A stretch of DNA of 64,000 nucleotides from Escherichia coli (GTDB lineage Bacteria; Pseudomonadota; Gammaproteobacteria; Enterobacterales; Enterobacteriaceae). Below are positions 3,336 to 63,475 of the stretch, one piece after another. The stretch lies in NCBI RefSeq assembly GCF_003018255.1, contig NZ_CP027440.1; one strand, given 5' to 3'. The notes beneath the pieces are model-generated. The model worked only from the letters and a program-made list of their open reading frames with translations. It was not told the origin of the DNA and searched no databases. Within the stretch, counting starts at the first letter, position 1. Every line of letters begins with the position of its first letter. Position numbers and translations under genes: made by a program.

Positions 3336-4670
<1,335 letters not shown>

Positions 4671-7248: not shown

Positions 7249-7769
7249 ATTCCTCTCCCCTCATAGGCGACGAATAGCATTTTGTGTTGAGGATCACAAA
7301 ACGAATAATTGCTGGTCGCCGCGATAAGGTCAGACGAAGACAACAAGGGGGATTCTCACTGTGCTTTACATCAGCGTAGGCCATAGAATGTTGCTTCGTT
7401 GACTGTAATGCCGGGTAAATGAGCATTTTTTGATAGTGCGAAAGAACCCTGCGAGGAAAATAAGCATCTATTATTGTTTGTCATGATGACAAGGCAGGCA
7501 TCAATGAAAGGCTTCCCAATTGCACATATTTTTCACCCTTCAATCCCGCCAATGCACGCAGTGGTTAACAATCACAACAGAAATATTGATTATTGGACGG
7601 TAAAAATTTAGGTTATAACGCCCAAATGATTCAACGATCGGACAATACCTGCGAACTTACAATTAATGAGAGAAATATATGTATAATTACGACCTTTTAA
7701 ATGCAATATAGACTTAATAACTTCTTACAAAGTCTATTATTAATACCGTAGATATTCATCTTACCCTGG

Positions 7770-7813: not shown

Positions 7814-8190
<377 letters not shown>

Positions 8191-33987: not shown

Positions 33988-34008
<21 letters not shown>

Positions 34009-34481: not shown

Positions 34482-34784
34482 ATGACACCCTGGTTTCTTT
34501 ACTTGATCCGTACCGCCGACGATAAGCTTTATACCGGGATCACCACAGATGTCGAACGCCGCTATCAGCAGCACCAAAGCGGCAAAGGGGCGAAAGCACT
34601 GCGCGGGAAAGGAGAACTAACGCTGGCGTTTTCCGCGCCAGTGGGCGATCGTTCGCTGGCACTACGGGCGGAATATCGCGTTAAGCAACTGACCAAACGG
34701 CAAAAAGAGCGTCTGGTAGCGGAAGGCGCAGGGTTTGCAGAACTGTTGAGCAGCCTGCAAACCCCAAAGATTAAAAGCGATTGA
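34482..34784 (+). CDS. yhbQ: GIY-YIG domain nuclease
   Basis: 100-aa ORF with [16 protein letters not shown] (GIY-YIG-like). Confidence 0.85.
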
Positions 34785-35274
34785 AGTGCTCGTGATACTC
34801 AACCAGACCAGTTACACCGTTCAGCGCGTCATCCGCTAAACGATGTACCTGGAAGGCACTTTCAGTGCCCGGCCAGCGGCAACGCAGATCGTGATGTGCC
34901 GCCAGTTCAAAGCCGAAACGGCTGTACAGCGCCGGATCGCCCAGCGTCACCACTGCGGCATAGCCGAACTCATTAAGCGAATCGAGTCCTTCATAGACCA
35001 GTTGGCGTGCCAGCCCCTGTCCACGGTATTTTTCATCTACCGCCAGCGGTGCCATGCCGACCCATTGCAGGTCTTCGCCCTGCACATCAACCGGACTAAA
35101 TGCCACATAGCCAATGACCTGACCTTCGTCATCTGTCGCCACCAGCCCCAGCGTCAGAAAGCCATCTTCACGCAGATCGTGAACCAGCTTCGCTTCCGCA
35201 TCACTTTCGAATGAACGACGCAGCAGGGCATCAATACCCGGCGCATCAATGGGAATTTCTACTCGAATTAGCAT
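34771..35274 (-). CDS. yhbS: GNAT-family N-acetyltransferase
   Basis: 167-aa ORF; 3' end overlaps yhbQ convergently. Confidence 0.85.
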
Positions 35275-35792
35275 GGTTCACCTACCGATGTCTGTTTGGT
35301 TTCAGGCGCGGTTTTCATTCCCGCCTCAACAAAATCCGCCAGTTGCAGCAGCATCATGCGTAAGGCTTTCGGCATTTGCTCCAGTTCAATGGCGTCCATC
35401 AGGTTTTTCACATACAGCCCCAGCTCCGTATCGCCTTCAATTACCAGCCGACGCTGGAAGAAGAGCGTATCCGGATCTTGTTTACGCGCCGCAATCATCA
35501 GCAGATCGCTGGCGTCGGCACTAAAACTCACATCAGCTTGCGCGTTCTGGCTAACGACCAGTTTGCCATTCACCACCGAGGTAAACCATTGCAGGTCAAT
35601 ATCACGCACATGAATACTTAACCAGCGGCCTTCAAGAAACTCCAGCTCGCCATCATCCAACGCCTGGCGGAATTGCCAGCTTAAGACCTGCTCAAGAACC
35701 TGGCGTTTTAGCGCAAATGGCGTCAGTTTTACCGGTACACTCAACAGAGATGGCCCCAAATGCACAATACGGGAACGCAGTTTATCCAACAC
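35268..35792 (-). CDS. ubiT: SCP2-domain lipid-binding protein for O2-independent ubiquinone synthesis
   Basis: ORF track 35268..35816; GTG at 35792 gives the 174-aa product M-LDKLRSRIVHLGPSLL (yhbT). Confidence 0.8.
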   Translation of the reverse strand: MLDKLRSRIVHLGPSLLSVPVKLTPFALKRQVLEQVLSWQFRQALDDGELEFLEGRWLSIHVRDIDLQWFTSVVNGKLVVSQNAQADVSFSADASDLLMIAARKQDPDTLFFQRRLVIEGDTELGLYVKNLMDAIELEQMPKALRMMLLQLADFVEAGMKTAPETKQTSVGEPC

Positions 35793-36000
35793 GAGTTTTA
35801 CTCCCTGTTTCAACAATCATCCTATTTTGCCATATCAGAAAAATAACATAGCGGTATAAATCAACAATTCCATATGAAATTGCTGCTACCACCAATACAA
35901 CTTTAACTGCCTTAAATCAAAAATTGTCGCAGCAAGGTTAACTAAAATCCCAGTTCGTTAACATTTTTGCGCTTTGATAGCGCAACCTTCAGGAAAAATT

Positions 36001-36996
36001 ATGGAGCTGCTCTGCCCTGCCGGAAATCTCCCGGCGCTTAAGGCGGCCATCGAAAACGGCGCAGATGCTGTTTATATCGGGCTAAAAGATGATACCAATG
36101 CCCGTCACTTCGCCGGCCTTAACTTTACCGAGAAAAAATTGCAGGAAGCGGTGAGTTTTGTCCATCAACATCGCCGCAAACTTCACATCGCGATTAACAC
36201 TTTTGCGCATCCGGACGGTTACGCCCGCTGGCAGCGCGCCGTGGATATGGCGGCGCAGTTGGGTGCCGACGCGCTGATCCTCGCCGACCTCGCCATGCTG
36301 GAGTACGCCGCCGAGCGTTACCCGCATATTGAGCGTCATGTGTCAGTGCAGGCTTCGGCGACCAATGAAGAGGCGATTAACTTTTATCATCGCCATTTTG
36401 ACGTTGCCCGCGTGGTGCTGCCGCGCGTGTTGTCGATTCATCAGGTGAAACAACTGGCACGGGTCACACCTGTCCCGCTGGAAGTGTTTGCTTTCGGCAG
36501 CCTGTGCATTATGTCGGAAGGCCGTTGCTATCTGTCGTCGTATCTGACGGGTGAGTCGCCCAACACCGTGGGCGCGTGTTCTCCGGCCCGTTTCGTGCGC
36601 TGGCAGCAAACGCCGCAGGGACTGGAATCTCGCCTGAACGAAGTGCTGATCGACCGTTATCAGGATGGCGAAAACGCAGGTTATCCGACGCTGTGTAAAG
36701 GGCGTTATCTGGTGGACGGCGAGCGCTATCACGCGCTGGAAGAACCCACCAGTCTCAATACCCTGGAACTGCTGCCGGAGTTAATGGCGGCGAATATTGC
36801 TTCGGTGAAAATTGAAGGCCGCCAGCGTAGCCCGGCGTATGTCAGCCAGGTGGCGAAAGTCTGGCGTCAGGCTATCGACCGTTGTAAGGCCGATCCGCAA
36901 AACTTCGTACCGCAAAGCGCGTGGATGGAGACGCTCGGGTCGATGTCCGAAGGCACGCAAACTACCCTTGGCGCGTATCACCGTAAATGGCAGTGA
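36001..36996 (+). CDS. ubiU: U32-peptidase-family protein, O2-independent ubiquinone hydroxylation
   Basis: ATG at 36001 gives MELLCPAGNLPALKAAIENGADAVYIG (yhbU). Confidence 0.88.
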   Translation: MELLCPAGNLPALKAAIENGADAVYIGLKDDTNARHFAGLNFTEKKLQEAVSFVHQHRRKLHIAINTFAHPDGYARWQRAVDMAAQLGADALILADLAMLEYAAERYPHIERHVSVQASATNEEAINFYHRHFDVARVVLPRVLSIHQVKQLARVTPVPLEVFAFGSLCIMSEGRCYLSSYLTGESPNTVGACSPARFVRWQQTPQGLESRLNEVLIDRYQDGENAGYPTLCKGRYLVDGERYHALEEPTSLNTLELLPELMAANIASVKIEGRQRSPAYVSQVAKVWRQAIDRCKADPQNFVPQSAWMETLGSMSEGTQTTLGAYHRKWQ

Positions 36997-37004
36997 GAAA
37001 AGCA

Positions 37005-37883
37005 ATGAAATATTCCTTAGGGCCGGTGCTATGGTACTGGCCAAAAGAGACGCTGGAAGACTTTTATCAGCAGGCCGCCGCCAGCAGCGCAGACGTGATT
37101 TATCTTGGTGAAGCGGTCTGTAGCAAACGCCGGGCAACCAAAGTTGGCGACTGGCTGGAGATGGCAAAATCGCTCGCCGGAAGTGGCAAGCAGATTGTGC
37201 TCTCCACGCTGGCGCTGGTGCAGGCGTCCTCCGAACTTGGCGAACTGAAACGTTATGTTGAGAACGGTGAGTTTCTGATTGAAGCCAGCGATCTCGGCGT
37301 GGTGAATATGTGCGCTGAACGCAAACTGCCGTTCGTCGCCGGGCACGCGCTGAACTGCTACAACGCGGTGACACTGAAAATATTGCTCAAACAGGGCATG
37401 ATGCGCTGGTGTATGCCGGTGGAGCTTTCCCGCGACTGGCTGGTGAATCTGCTTAATCAGTGCGATGAGCTGGGCATTCGCAACCAGTTTGAAGTGGAAG
37501 TCCTGAGCTACGGTCATCTGCCGCTGGCCTACTCCGCCCGCTGCTTTACCGCGCGTTCGGAAGACCGCCCGAAAGATGAGTGTGAAACCTGCTGCATTAA
37601 GTATCCGAACGGGCGCAACGTGCTATCGCAGGAAAACCAACAAGTGTTTGTACTCAATGGCATTCAGACCATGAGCGGCTACGTTTACAACCTCGGTAAC
37701 GAGCTGGCATCCATGCAGGGGCTGGTCGATGTGGTCCGCCTGTCACCGCAGGGTACTGACACTTTCGCGATACTCGACGCCTTCCGCGCCAATGAAAATG
37801 GCGCTGCACCACTGCCGTTGACGGCAAACAGCGATTGTAACGGCTACTGGCGGCGGCTGGCCGGGCTGGAGCTGCAAGCCTAA
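37005..37883 (+). CDS. ubiV: U32-peptidase-family protein, partner of UbiU
   Basis: ATG at 37005 gives MKYSLGPVLWYWPKETLEDFYQ (yhbV); overlaps the ubiU frame end. Confidence 0.88.
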   Translation: MKYSLGPVLWYWPKETLEDFYQQAAASSADVIYLGEAVCSKRRATKVGDWLEMAKSLAGSGKQIVLSTLALVQASSELGELKRYVENGEFLIEASDLGVVNMCAERKLPFVAGHALNCYNAVTLKILLKQGMMRWCMPVELSRDWLVNLLNQCDELGIRNQFEVEVLSYGHLPLAYSARCFTARSEDRPKDECETCCIKYPNGRNVLSQENQQVFVLNGIQTMSGYVYNLGNELASMQGLVDVVRLSPQGTDTFAILDAFRANENGAAPLPLTANSDCNGYWRRLAGLELQA

Positions 37884-37963
37884 GTAAATAGCTCACTTTG
37901 TTAACAACTTTAACTACTCTTTAATGCAGTATTAAAGATTAATCAGTAACAAAGTGAGCTGTT

Positions 37964-38971
37964 ATGACTGATAAAACCATTGCGTTTTCGCTACTCGATC
38001 TGGCCCCCATTCCCGAAGGCTCTTCAGCGCGGGAAGCGTTCTCCCACTCTCTCGACCTCGCCCGTCTGGCTGAAAAGCGCGGCTATCATCGCTACTGGCT
38101 GGCGGAACACCACAATATGACCGGCATTGCCAGTGCTGCAACATCAGTTTTGATTGGCTATCTGGCGGCGAATACCACTACGCTGCATCTGGGGTCTGGC
38201 GGCGTGATGTTGCCTAACCACTCACCATTGGTGATCGCCGAACAGTTCGGCACGCTTAATACGCTCTATCCGGGGCGAATCGATTTGGGGCTGGGTCGTG
38301 CGCCGGGTAGTGACCAGCGAACCATGATGGCACTACGTCGTCATATGAGCGGTGATATTGATAATTTCCCCCGCGATGTCGCGGAGCTGGTGGACTGGTT
38401 TGACGCCCGCGATCCCAATCCGCATGTGCGCCCGGTACCAGGCTATGGCGAGAAAATCCCCGTGTGGTTGTTAGGCTCCAGCCTTTACAGCGCGCAACTG
38501 GCGGCGCAGCTTGGTCTGCCGTTTGCGTTTGCCTCACACTTCGCGCCGGATATGTTGTTCCAGGCGCTGCATCTTTATCGCAGCAACTTCAAACCGTCGG
38601 CACGACTGGAAAAACCATACGCGATGGTGTGCATCAATATTATCGCTGCCGACAGCAACCGCGACGCTGAATTTCTGTTTACCTCAATGCAGCAAGCCTT
38701 TGTGAAACTACGCCGTGGCGAAACCGGACAACTACCGCCACCGATTCAAAATATGGATCAGTTCTGGTCACCGTCTGAGCAGTATGGCGTGCAGCAGGCG
38801 CTGAGTATGTCGTTGGTAGGTGATAAAGCGAAAGTGCGTCATGGCTTGCAGTCGATCCTGCGCGAAACCGACGCCGATGAGATTATGGTTAACGGGCAGA
38901 TTTTCGATCACCAGGCACGCCTGCATTCGTTTGAACTGGCGATGGATGTGAAGGAAGAGTTGTTGGGATAG
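37964..38971 (+). CDS. yhbW: luciferase-like flavin-dependent monooxygenase
   Basis: 335-aa [29 protein letters not shown]. Confidence 0.88.
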
Positions 38972-38982
38972 TATGTCTTAAC

Positions 38983-39085
38983 GCGGGAAGCCTTATCCGA
39001 GCTGGCAACGCTGTCCTACGTAGACCTGATAAGCGAAGCGCATCAGGCATTGTGGAGGCAGCAGAAATGTCGGATAAGGCACCGC
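38983..39085. repeat. REP/BIME element
   Basis: gccttatccgagctggc ... tgtcggataaggcaccgc palindromic units between yhbW and mtr. Confidence 0.75.
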
Positions 39086-39088
39086 TGA

Positions 39089-40333
39089 TTACTGATACAC
39101 CGGCAGCAAATTAAAGCTCGATAAAATATGCACCAGTGCGTTGCCGACGCCAAATACCAGAATCAGCGCAATCATCGGCTTGCCGCCCCAGACGCGGAAT
39201 TTCGGGCTGCCAAAGCGTTTACGCGATGCGCGGGCCAACAGCGCCGGTACAATTGCCGCCCAGATAGTAGCTGCTAAGCCAGCATAACCAATGGCATACA
39301 GGAATCCGTTCGGAAATAGCAGACCACCCACAACAGGCGGGGCAAAGGTCAGCAACGCCGTTTTAAAGCGGCCCAGGGCAGAGTCGTCAAAACCAAACAG
39401 ATCTGCCAGATAGTCAAACAAACCCAGCGTTACGCCGAGGAACGAACTTGCTACCGCAAAGTTTGAGAACACGACCAGCAGAAGGTCCAGGCTACGGCTG
39501 TTCAGCACGCCGCTTAATGCCTGTACCAGCACATCAATATTACCGCCCTTCTCGGCGATGCCGATAAACTCCGGACGAGGGATGTTGCCCATCGTCGCCA
39601 GCAACCAGATGGTATACAGCGCCAGCGCCATCAGCGTACCGTACACCAGGCATTTCACGATGGTTTTCGGATCTTTGCCGTAATACTTCATCAGGCTCGG
39701 CACGTTACCGTGATAACCAAACGATGCCAGACAGAATGGCAGCGTCATCAGCAGATACGGTGCATAAGACGCATTGCTTTCGGCGACGTTGAACAATGTC
39801 GCAGGCTGCACATGCCCCAGTAGGCTACCGAAGGTGAGGAAGAAGGTAATGACTTTCGCCCCCAGCACAATCGCCGTCATGCGGCTGACGGCTTTAGTGC
39901 TCAACCACACCACAAACGCCACCAGCAGTGCAAAACCAAAACCCGCTGCCCGTGCCGGGACGTTCAATGACATCTCTGCGAAGGTATGATGCAGAATCGA
40001 ACCGCTGGCAGAAATATAGGCATAGGTCAGGATATAGAGCACAAAGGCAATGGAAATGCCGTTGACCACGTTCCAGCCTTTGCCCAGCAAATCTTTGGTG
40101 ATGGTGTCAAAGCTCGAACCGATTCGGTAATTCAGGTTAGCTTCCAGAATCATCAAGCCGGAATGCAGCATACAGAACCAGGTAAAGATCAGCGCCGCCA
40201 TTGACCAGAAGAACCACGCCCCGGACATGACCACAGGCAGAGAAAACATCCCTGCGCCAATAATGGTGCCGCCGATAATCACCACGCCGCCAAGCAGCGA
40301 CGGTGACGTTTGGGTGGTGGTTAGTGTTGCCAT
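39089..40333 (-). CDS. mtr: tryptophan-specific permease
   Basis: 414-aa membrane [36 protein letters not shown]. Confidence 0.92.
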
Positions 40334-45684: not shown

Positions 45685-45930
45685 TGTAATATCCTTTCTC
45701 TTTCTTAGACAGTACCTTACGGCACTGGTGTTAATACCCGATCTTCTGCGCATCCTCGCGACTAATGACAACCCTAACCCAGCTCTATGTGGGTAAAGCC
45801 TCTCATTAGCCGCGCGAACCTCTGCAGCGGAAGATCATTCATAGCAACAATACATTAGTTTCCAGTGAATTGCTGCCGTCAGCTTGAAAAAAGGGGCCAC
45901 TCAGGCCCCCTTTTCTGAAACTCGCAAGAA
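45685..45930 (-). promoter_or_regulatory. pnp leader and rpsO terminator region
   Basis: GC-rich hairpin aaaaaaggggccactcaggccccctttt at 45887..45914 just 3' of rpsO, followed by a long structured pnp 5' UTR. Confidence 0.7.
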
Positions 45931-46296
<366 letters not shown>

Positions 46297-47694: not shown

Positions 47695-47772
47695 AATAAA
47701 TTCTCCTGACAAAAAAGGGGCTGTTAGCCCCTTTTTAAAATTAATTTCAGGTGGAAGGGCTGTTCACGTTGG

Positions 47773-47846
47773 CCTGATAAGACGCGCCAGCGTCGCATCA
47801 GGCAATCCATGCCGGATGCGGCGTAAACGCCTTATCCCGCATGGAA
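47773..47846. repeat. REP/BIME element
   Basis: ggcctgataagacgcgccagcgtcgcatcaggc ... gccggatgcggcgtaaacgccttatcc. Confidence 0.8.
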
Positions 47847-52522: not shown

Positions 52523-52582
52523 GCCCACCCCCAAGACATAAAAAAAGGGCCTAAAGCCCAGTTATTCTGTAGTCAGATAACA

Positions 52583-52608
52583 AAAAACCCCGATAAATCG
52601 GGGCTTTA
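52583..52608 (-). terminator. hairpin with U-run between metY and rimP (probable partial terminator/attenuator)
   Basis: Plus strand aaaaaaccccgataaatcggggcttt; on the minus strand a 6-bp GC stem followed by Ts. Confidence 0.55.
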
Positions 52609-52728
52609 TATAACTGAACCCTATAACCGCAACTGCGGTCTGGAGCACTTTCCAGAAGGATTTTTTCAAATCCCACTACGAAGGCCGAAGTCTTCACAGT
52701 ATATTTGAAAAAGGACTCTAAGGGAAAG

Positions 52729-52805
<77 letters not shown>

Positions 52806-56585: not shown

Positions 56586-56672
56586 TGGTACCGAGGACGG
56601 GACTTGAACCCGTAAGCCCTATTGGGCACTACCACCTCAAGGTAGCGTGTCTACCAATTCCACCACCTCGGC
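56586..56672 (-). tRNA. leuU: tRNA-Leu (GAG anticodon), 87 nt
   Basis: Reverse complement reads GCCGAGGTGGTGGAATTGGTAGACACGCTACCTTGAGGTGGTAGTGCCCAATAGGGCTTACGGGTTCAAGTCCCGTCCTCGGTACCA. Confidence 0.95.
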
Positions 56673-63229: not shown

Positions 63230-63475
63230 TTGTTATACCTCTTGAATATTCCTGATGGGGCAAGTCTTCACCCACCCCGGCTGTTCGGCCTGCCCGGCAT
63301 AACTCCTCACCGGGACCAGAAGCAAAAAAATACCGACCCGGGTACAAGTCCCAGGTCAGCTACAATTCACATTTTGATAGTCATTTTACCCTGAAGTTCC
63401 CGAAGGGTCATCGTTTACTTTATAGGGCGTTGCGCCGTAGTATGACGGCTCGATTCCAGGTTGTTAGCGCGAGAT

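Follow-up and report, generated by a model that had tools for sequence, protein, structure and literature searches.

The closest described relatives of the locus treated here, the ubiT and ubiU-ubiV genes for O2-independent ubiquinone (UQ) biosynthesis in a 64,000-nucleotide stretch of Escherichia coli DNA (assembly GCF_003018255.1, contig NZ_CP027440.1; hereafter the window), are the systems of E. coli K-12 and Pseudomonas aeruginosa. UbiU and UbiV form a heterodimer in which each subunit holds one [4Fe-4S] cluster through four cysteines and which carries out O2-independent ring hydroxylations (PMC6747719). The oxygen atoms of this anaerobic hydroxylation come from prephenate and not from O2 (PMC10990095). 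In air, the hydroxylations performed by UbiU-UbiV are done instead by the flavin mono-oxygenases UbiI, UbiH and UbiF. UbiT is a lipid-binding accessory factor with an SCP2 domain, proposed to be the anaerobic counterpart of UbiJ; in K-12 and in P. aeruginosa it is required for anaerobic UQ synthesis and binds lipid or UQ (PMC6747719; bioRxiv 10.1101/2020.03.22.002311). The P. aeruginosa homologues, ubiUVT (PA3913-PA3912-PA3911), are required for O2-independent ubiquinone synthesis, and UbiV of that species likewise binds a [4Fe-4S] cluster (bioRxiv 10.1101/2020.03.22.002311). The pathway is important for colonising the gut and for growing across gradients of oxygen (PMC10470549).

The ubiT/ubiUV locus and its control region

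A 3.2-kb query around the locus matched 5424 of 5426 complete E. coli genomes with at least 95% identity, a presence so general that the locus is not a chance feature. The query region was 100% identical to strain JNE23-011, and the 64-kb window as a whole is collinear with NZ_AP045067.1 of that strain, with 521 mismatches and no indels. Gene coordinates were taken from the list of open reading frames (ORFs) and from the RefSeq annotations of the 100%-identical genome and of K-12 MG1655; all agree, and both RefSeq annotations name the genes ubiT, ubiU and ubiV.

The gene ubiT (yhbT; 35268-35792, 174 amino acids, aa) lies on the minus strand, divergent from plus-strand ubiU (yhbU; 36001-36996, 331 aa) and ubiV (yhbV; 37005-37883, 292 aa). 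Between the start codons of ubiT and ubiU is a shared control region of exactly 208 bp (35793-36000). The orientation of the three genes, the extent of this region and the end of ubiV had all been given in the initial annotation, and the ORF list and RefSeq confirm them. On its other flank ubiT is followed by yhbS (hqbA; 34771-35274, minus strand), the second gene of the ubiT operon. On the plus strand, an 8-nt spacer, GAAAAGCA (36997-37004), separates ubiU from ubiV, and an 80-bp spacer with a nested palindrome (37884-37963) separates ubiV from yhbW (37964-38971, from the RefSeq annotation).

K-12 MG1655 has the same genes, ubiT (b3157) and ubiU (b3158)-ubiV (b3159), in the same order and orientation and with the same lengths. 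It also has the same 208-bp intergenic region, with identical copies of the two Fnr sites F1 and F2, and the same neighbours, yhbS upstream and yhbW downstream. The differences are allelic only, with 96.9-99.6% nucleotide identity between the genes. In P. aeruginosa the three genes form one predicted co-directional operon, whereas here ubiT is divergent from ubiUV and paired with hqbA. For wider comparison we used UbiV as query to collect 78 loci from other Enterobacteriaceae, and in these ubiT is divergent from ubiU in the same arrangement. Judged from its sequence, the stretch is almost certainly a core-genome E. coli locus for O2-independent ubiquinone-8 biosynthesis, whose function and regulation should be those of K-12; the strain would thereby carry an intact, canonically regulated pathway. 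The initial annotation had regarded the O2-independent system as already known. Domains, family models, RefSeq names and published Fnr sites all back this view, and there is nothing much new in the main locus.

The UbiT protein is identical to that of K-12 (0 differences). It matches Pfam SCP2 (PF02036) at E 7.9e-20 over residues 43-133 and the NCBIfam UbiT equivalog NF047962 at 153.6 bits against a cut-off of 46.9. By sequence, its matches among solved structures are weak and distant members of the SCP2 group, for example 1c44 (E 4e-5). We expect UbiT in this strain to have the same accessory role as K-12 UbiT. Its start codon is GTG, as in 78 of 78 related loci, and is preceded by the strongest Shine-Dalgarno pairing in the locus (-7.7 kcal/mol).

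The stop of ubiT and the ATG of yhbS share 7 nt (ATGCTAA, 35268-35274), and this is the genuine gene overlap within the locus. It fits the published ubiT-hqbA operon, in which hqbA is the second gene, co-transcribed with ubiT, and shows Fnr-dependent anaerobic co-induction in addition to aerobic expression; HqbA is an Hfq-binding acetyltransferase (PMC10710024). Relative to K-12, yhbS has 12 nucleotide differences and yhbW has 39, with no amino-acid change in either. Divergence that is silent throughout implies strong purifying selection on these two poorly understood proteins.

The control region differs from that of K-12 by one base, at 35972 (T in K-12, C here), which lies outside F1 and F2. 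Both sites are on the minus strand, and each is present as an exact 14-mer found once in the window: F1, TTGATTTAAGGCAG, at 35907-35920, and F2, TTGATTTATACCGC, at 35851-35864. In K-12, F1 is 36 nt upstream of the ubiUV transcription start, and F2 is 33 nt upstream of the start used by ubiTp2, the proximal promoter of ubiT, and 19 nt downstream of the one used by the distal constitutive promoter, ubiTp1 (Arias-Cartin et al., PMC10470549). Fnr at F1 activates ubiUV from microaerobiosis to anaerobiosis, while ubiT has a basal aerobic level from its distal constitutive promoter that is boosted by Fnr acting at F2 on ubiTp2 (PMC10470549). Mutation of F1 abolishes anaerobic UbiV production, and F2 is needed for anaerobic induction of UbiT (PMC10470549). 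Fnr-dependent anaerobic expression in K-12 was shown there with reporter fusions, western blots and chromosomal site mutants, and independently in a second study (PMC10710024). We expect the same Fnr switching at F1 and F2 in this strain.

Projecting the published distances onto the window places candidate promoter elements. For ubiUVp the candidate -10 hexamer is TAAAAT (35943-35948, plus strand), with a start at about 35956-35957. For ubiTp2 it is CAAAAT (35824-35829, minus strand), with a start near 35817, and the distal constitutive start of ubiTp1 would fall near 35884 (minus strand). Conservation gives both Fnr sites independent backing: across the 78 loci, the ATCAA half-site of each is invariant (78/78). 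F1 reads CTGCCYNAAATCAA in these loci, with C instead of T at the sixth base in two, and F2 stands 57-60 nt from the ubiT GTG.

Some variation in the region was noted. F1 and F2 are spaced by 56 bp in Escherichia, against 65-67 bp in most cases in other genera, so that about one helical turn between the Fnr sites is missing from Escherichia. The region between ubiT and ubiU, 208 bp long in Escherichia, measures 213-241 bp in most loci elsewhere, with an overall range of 205-258 bp. A small hairpin, TTGCGC-N7-GCGCAA (35967-35985), lies in the ubiUV 5' leader just upstream of the Shine-Dalgarno sequence, and the T-to-C difference at 35972 turns a G.U pair of its stem into a G-C pair. The fold of this leader hairpin is no better than that of shuffled sequences (z = -0.33); two segments of the ubiT leader gave z = -1.8 and -1.7.

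UbiU, UbiV and the start of ubiV

UbiU differs from its K-12 counterpart at one residue (I190V) and UbiV at three (E19D, T26A and M256I). Both match Pfam Peptidase_U32 (PF01136), UbiU at E 6.9e-68 and UbiV at E 1.2e-9. UbiU matches its NCBIfam equivalog NF047963 over residues 1-331 of 331 at 560.5 bits (cut-off 440), and UbiV matches NF047965 at 363.8 bits (cut-off 275) and PRK15447 (NF011991) at 440.5 bits (cut-off 283). The initial annotation had set beforehand, as the result that would undo its reading, domain searches that did not support SCP2 for UbiT or U32 for UbiU and UbiV; Pfam and the NCBIfam equivalogs uphold both assignments. The eight cysteines shown to be Fe-S ligands of the two proteins, in their published motifs (PMC6747719), are all present: C169, C176, C193 and C232 in UbiU (CX6CX16CX38C) and C39, C180, C193 and C197 in UbiV (CXnCX12CX3C), the latter numbered from ATG 37005. 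In this strain the UbiU-UbiV heterodimer would be expected to carry out prephenate-dependent hydroxylation of the ubiquinone ring without O2, as it does in K-12.

The one claim of the initial annotation on gene layout that is not borne out is an overlap between ubiU and ubiV. The ubiU stop codon occupies 36994-36996 and ubiV starts at ATG 37005, leaving a gap of 8 nt; an overlap arises only if ubiV is taken to begin at the first ATG of its open frame, at 36987, which would give a protein of 298 aa. The decisive evidence for 37005 is the comparison of the 78 loci. There the ATG-AAA-TAT of ubiV (MKY, the beginning of an MKYS start) is invariant (78/78), while the position equivalent to 36987 is without an in-frame start codon in 15 of the 78. 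Nine of these 15 have a 7-nt spacer or an unplaceable ubiU end, and the other six have an in-frame stop within the spacer; with a 7-nt spacer, the 36987-equivalent ATG falls outside the ubiV frame. A spacer of 8 nt is seen in 69 loci and one of 7 nt in eight, so 77 of the 78 keep a length of 7-8 nt; the spacer sequence varies freely. A purine-rich, Shine-Dalgarno-like motif (TGAGAAAAGCAATG) lies across the ubiU stop (TGAGA) and precedes ATG 37005. Because this motif overlaps the ubiU stop and the gap is only 8 nt, translation of the two genes is probably coupled by proximity rather than by overlap. In practical terms, the ubiV gene model should begin at 37005, with no overlap.

Two other readings of these genes bear on what UbiV is and where it begins. 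Initiation at 36987 would create a 10-nt overlap with ubiU and coupling through that overlap, and it can claim the first ATG in the open frame, matched by an in-frame ATG in 60 of the 78 loci and by GTG in three more. We regard it as very improbable. That ATG is a by-product of the conserved C-terminal codons AAA-TGG (K-W) of ubiU, it is missing as an in-frame start from the 15 loci described above while the MKYS start never varies, and it has no Shine-Dalgarno motif before it (pairing of -2.3 kcal/mol, vs -3.6 before 37005). RefSeq and K-12 both use 37005 (292 aa), and the NCBIfam UbiV and PRK15447 profiles begin only at residues 8 and 7, respectively, of the 298-aa ORF. The published numbering C39/C180/C193/C197 fits the 292-aa UbiV only, which is also the protein to which the constructs complementing a ubiV deletion correspond (PMC6747719). 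The second reading takes the old family name at its word: the Pfam family is called Peptidase_U32, RefSeq continues to call the product of this ubiV a 'U32 family peptidase', and UbiU and UbiV might on that account be collagenase-type peptidases with no direct role in quinone hydroxylation. We give this practically no credence, in view of the genetics, the Fe-S biochemistry and the heterodimer (PMC6747719) and of 18O labelling from prephenate (PMC10990095). All Fe-S ligands are kept, moreover, and the UbiU and UbiV equivalogs far outscore models of paralogues; UbiU reaches 165 bits against the tRNA hydroxylase TrhP cut-off of 534, which makes it a paralogue of that family and not a member.

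Start codons further upstream were considered for the other two genes as well. The longer starts TTG 35816 for ubiT and TTG 35974 for ubiU were ruled out, like ATG 36987 for ubiV, by annotation, Shine-Dalgarno pairing, profile boundaries and cross-species conservation.

Several points weigh against the reading of the locus as K-12-like in function and regulation. Both would rest on near-identity to K-12, which is the ground for carrying K-12 properties over to the window. A solved structure of UbiU or UbiV was not found by sequence search. F1 and F2 are weak by sequence: in each, one TTGAT half-site is perfect and the other has 3 mismatches. The initial annotation had suggested looking for a pair of Fnr half-sites in 35793-36000. 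The published F1 and F2 are there exactly, but a scan for the symmetric consensus TTGAT-N4-ATCAA with up to 2 mismatches missed both and found no match in the spacer; Fnr consensus matches in the window were at chance level (39 vs 33.2 +/- 5.9 expected). Such a generic scan is uninformative, since the real sites have 3 mismatches each. Fnr control here is invisible to it and was revealed only by the single-half-site pattern conserved across Enterobacteriaceae, which is of practical use. Finally, a simple sigma-70 scan found no consensus-like promoter at the published starts, a result that fits activator dependence without demonstrating it. The combined sigma-70 and terminator scan of 35100-38100 gave one promoter-like match, at 35974, overlapping the ubiU start; it found no terminator after ubiV and nothing above shuffled expectation.

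The palindrome between ubiV and yhbW

The 80-bp ubiV-yhbW spacer (37884-37963) contains the only element here for which the literature searched held no prior description. Its outer arms, 37887-37903 and 37947-37963, are 17 nt long and would pair with one U.G pair; nested within them are inner arms at 37915-37925 and 37931-37941. The right outer arm abuts the yhbW ATG at 37964 and covers the ribosome-binding region. As RNA, the spacer folds at -28 kcal/mol (z = -5.45), and none of 200 shuffled sequences was as stable.

The arrangement is conserved in other Enterobacteriaceae. The adjacency of ubiV and yhbW is kept in 76 of 78 related loci assessable, and of the 76 loci having yhbW, long forms included, 75 retain a 10-17 bp stem whose right arm ends 0-5 nt ahead of the yhbW ATG; the arms lie about 43-46, 97-114 or 161 nt from each other. 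Across 47 distinct core sequences, pairing in the outer 12-bp stem is complete (564 of 564 cells). The changes seen in these sequences are one-sided only and preserve a G.U pair in the plus-strand RNA, and among the aligned sequences there were no double compensatory changes, which would have proved RNA pairing. Because the arms are almost invariant, the shuffle control for covariation is uninformative. Rfam searches, at gathering thresholds over the whole window and at a permissive E-value over 35700-38100, found no family in the locus or in the ubiV-yhbW spacer, and gave two sub-threshold chance matches only.

Insertions were observed on either side of the left arm. In E. albertii and E. whittamii (L005 and L006, 4380-4655), an insertion of ~270 nt with an ERIC-like core, CACCCCAGTCACTTACTTATGTAAGCTCCTGGGGATTCAC, lies between ubiV and the palindrome, and in Salmonella and several Citrobacter that place is taken by REP-like elements (GCCGGATG...). 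Elements upstream of the palindrome were found in loci L030, L048, L009, L012 and L060. The palindrome is intact in all loci carrying REP or ERIC insertions. In Escherichia sp. MOD1-EC7003 (L007, 4379-5284), yhbW and the palindrome are deleted: the sequence after ubiV joins the last yhbW codons and then mtr, aligning to 38918-39794 of the window with 92% identity.

Another group has a conserved, structured insert of ~63 nt between the arms. It occurs, in a patchy distribution, in Klebsiella, Raoultella, Kluyvera, Kosakonia, Phytobacter, Cedecea and others (L024, L025, L027, L036, L037, L039, L040, L043, L044, L049, L050, L052, L065-L068, L071, L074, L076, L079 and L082, at ~4383-4530). The insert reads GCAGCTTTTCTGGC, then a GC-rich stem with a variable loop, then GCCAGGCTGGAAGAAGACCTTCAATCTGATGAC, and part of it, AATCTGATGAC, pairs with sequence beside the left arm. 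It sits just after the predicted -10 hexamer and would give a 5'-terminal stem-loop in the yhbW mRNA.

The gene yhbW belongs to the mar/sox/rob/RamA regulon, and in Klebsiella RamA acts directly on the yhbW promoter, binding and activating it (PMC4310594; PMC6561319). In the window the candidate -10 of yhbW is TATTAA (37930-37935), with the left arm of the palindrome at the distance of a class II activator site. The left arm fits the marbox consensus with 3 mismatches. Marbox matches in the window as a whole are at chance level, however (140 vs 135.5 +/- 12.1 expected), so that the arm is not established as a marbox by sequence alone. The literature search found no transcript-unit papers that treat yhbW together with yhbV.

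We tentatively propose, as the reading we prefer but would hold at well below even, that the palindrome is an RNA-level insulator that hides the yhbW ribosome-binding site on transcripts reading through from ubiUV. Read-through transcripts from the Fnr-activated ubiUV promoter would contain both arms and fold into a stem of 13-17 bp in which the Shine-Dalgarno region of yhbW is buried as far as the AUG. Anaerobic cells would hence make no YhbW, which is an O2-dependent luciferase-like mono-oxygenase, and the untranslated read-through RNA would then be open to termination by Rho. Transcripts from the activator-dependent promoter of yhbW itself, predicted to lie between the arms, would be without the left arm and so translatable. 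The left arm might double as an activator (marbox-like) site, a dual role that would explain the near-invariance of both arms.

The palindrome could instead be a plain 3' end of ubiUV, a terminator or a stabilising 3' hairpin with no role in yhbW expression. A very stable hairpin does begin 4 nt after the ubiV stop, and nothing else terminator-like follows the gene. The stem has no U-tract after it, though, and the RamA-bound promoter of Klebsiella must lie within the ubiV-yhbW spacer (PMC4310594). In addition, REP and ERIC insertions part the palindrome from ubiV, but the right arm is never found more than 0-5 nt away from the start codon of yhbW. Since insertions separate the palindrome from ubiV but never from yhbW, the element travels with yhbW, and we think a plain 3' end unlikely, somewhat more so than the insulator. 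As an alternative to both, the arms may be paired DNA sites for a protein. Should the insulator exist, the operon boundary would offer a simple case of translation that depends on the promoter used.

Other features of the window and comparison with known systems

Elsewhere in the window, Rfam matches at gathering level were RNase P RNA (7814-8190), the small RNA SraG (45743-45914), the S15 leader (46144-46258), naRNA4 (47771-47841), the rimP leader (52540-52640), the greA leader (63325-63446) and two tRNAs (52732-52805 and 56589-56672), for which the matching genome annotates tRNA-Met and tRNA-Leu. All of these are expected for the E. coli region that includes tdc-gar-aga, nusA-infB-pnp and ftsH-greA. 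In two pairs of convergent genes the 3' ends overlap, with 21 nt shared by yhbO and yhbP (33988-34008) and 14 nt by yhbQ and yhbS (34771-34784). Between tdcR and rnpB, at 7504-7670, the annotation of the matching RefSeq genome has two very small fragments of pseudogenes, described as 'incomplete; partial in the middle of a contig'.

Among described proteins outside the ubiquinone pathway, the paralogous U32 hydroxylases TrhP (tRNA U34 hydroxylase) and RlhA (rRNA hydroxylase) share with UbiU and UbiV the Pfam U32 domain, conserved four-cysteine motifs and O2-independent hydroxylation, and TrhP is named prephenate-dependent by NCBIfam. They differ in substrate, which is RNA for TrhP and RlhA and a prenylated quinone precursor for UbiU-UbiV.

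For the palindrome, the likeness is to IS10/Tn10, in which transposase translation is reportedly inhibited by fold-back of transcripts reading in from outside, as Davis, Simons and Kleckner are said to have found in 1985. As in IS10, the downstream arm of an inverted repeat lies on the ribosome-binding region, and the upstream arm precedes the promoter predicted for the gene itself; given that position of the upstream arm, only read-through transcripts would form the inhibitory hairpin. Unlike in IS10, the gene concerned, yhbW, is chromosomal and stands downstream of an Fnr-activated operon, and an activator may also bind at the upstream arm. If the insulator reading is right, the spacer would be a chromosomal analogue of IS10 fold-back, linking the 3' boundary of ubiUV to the insulation of an oxygen-dependent gene.

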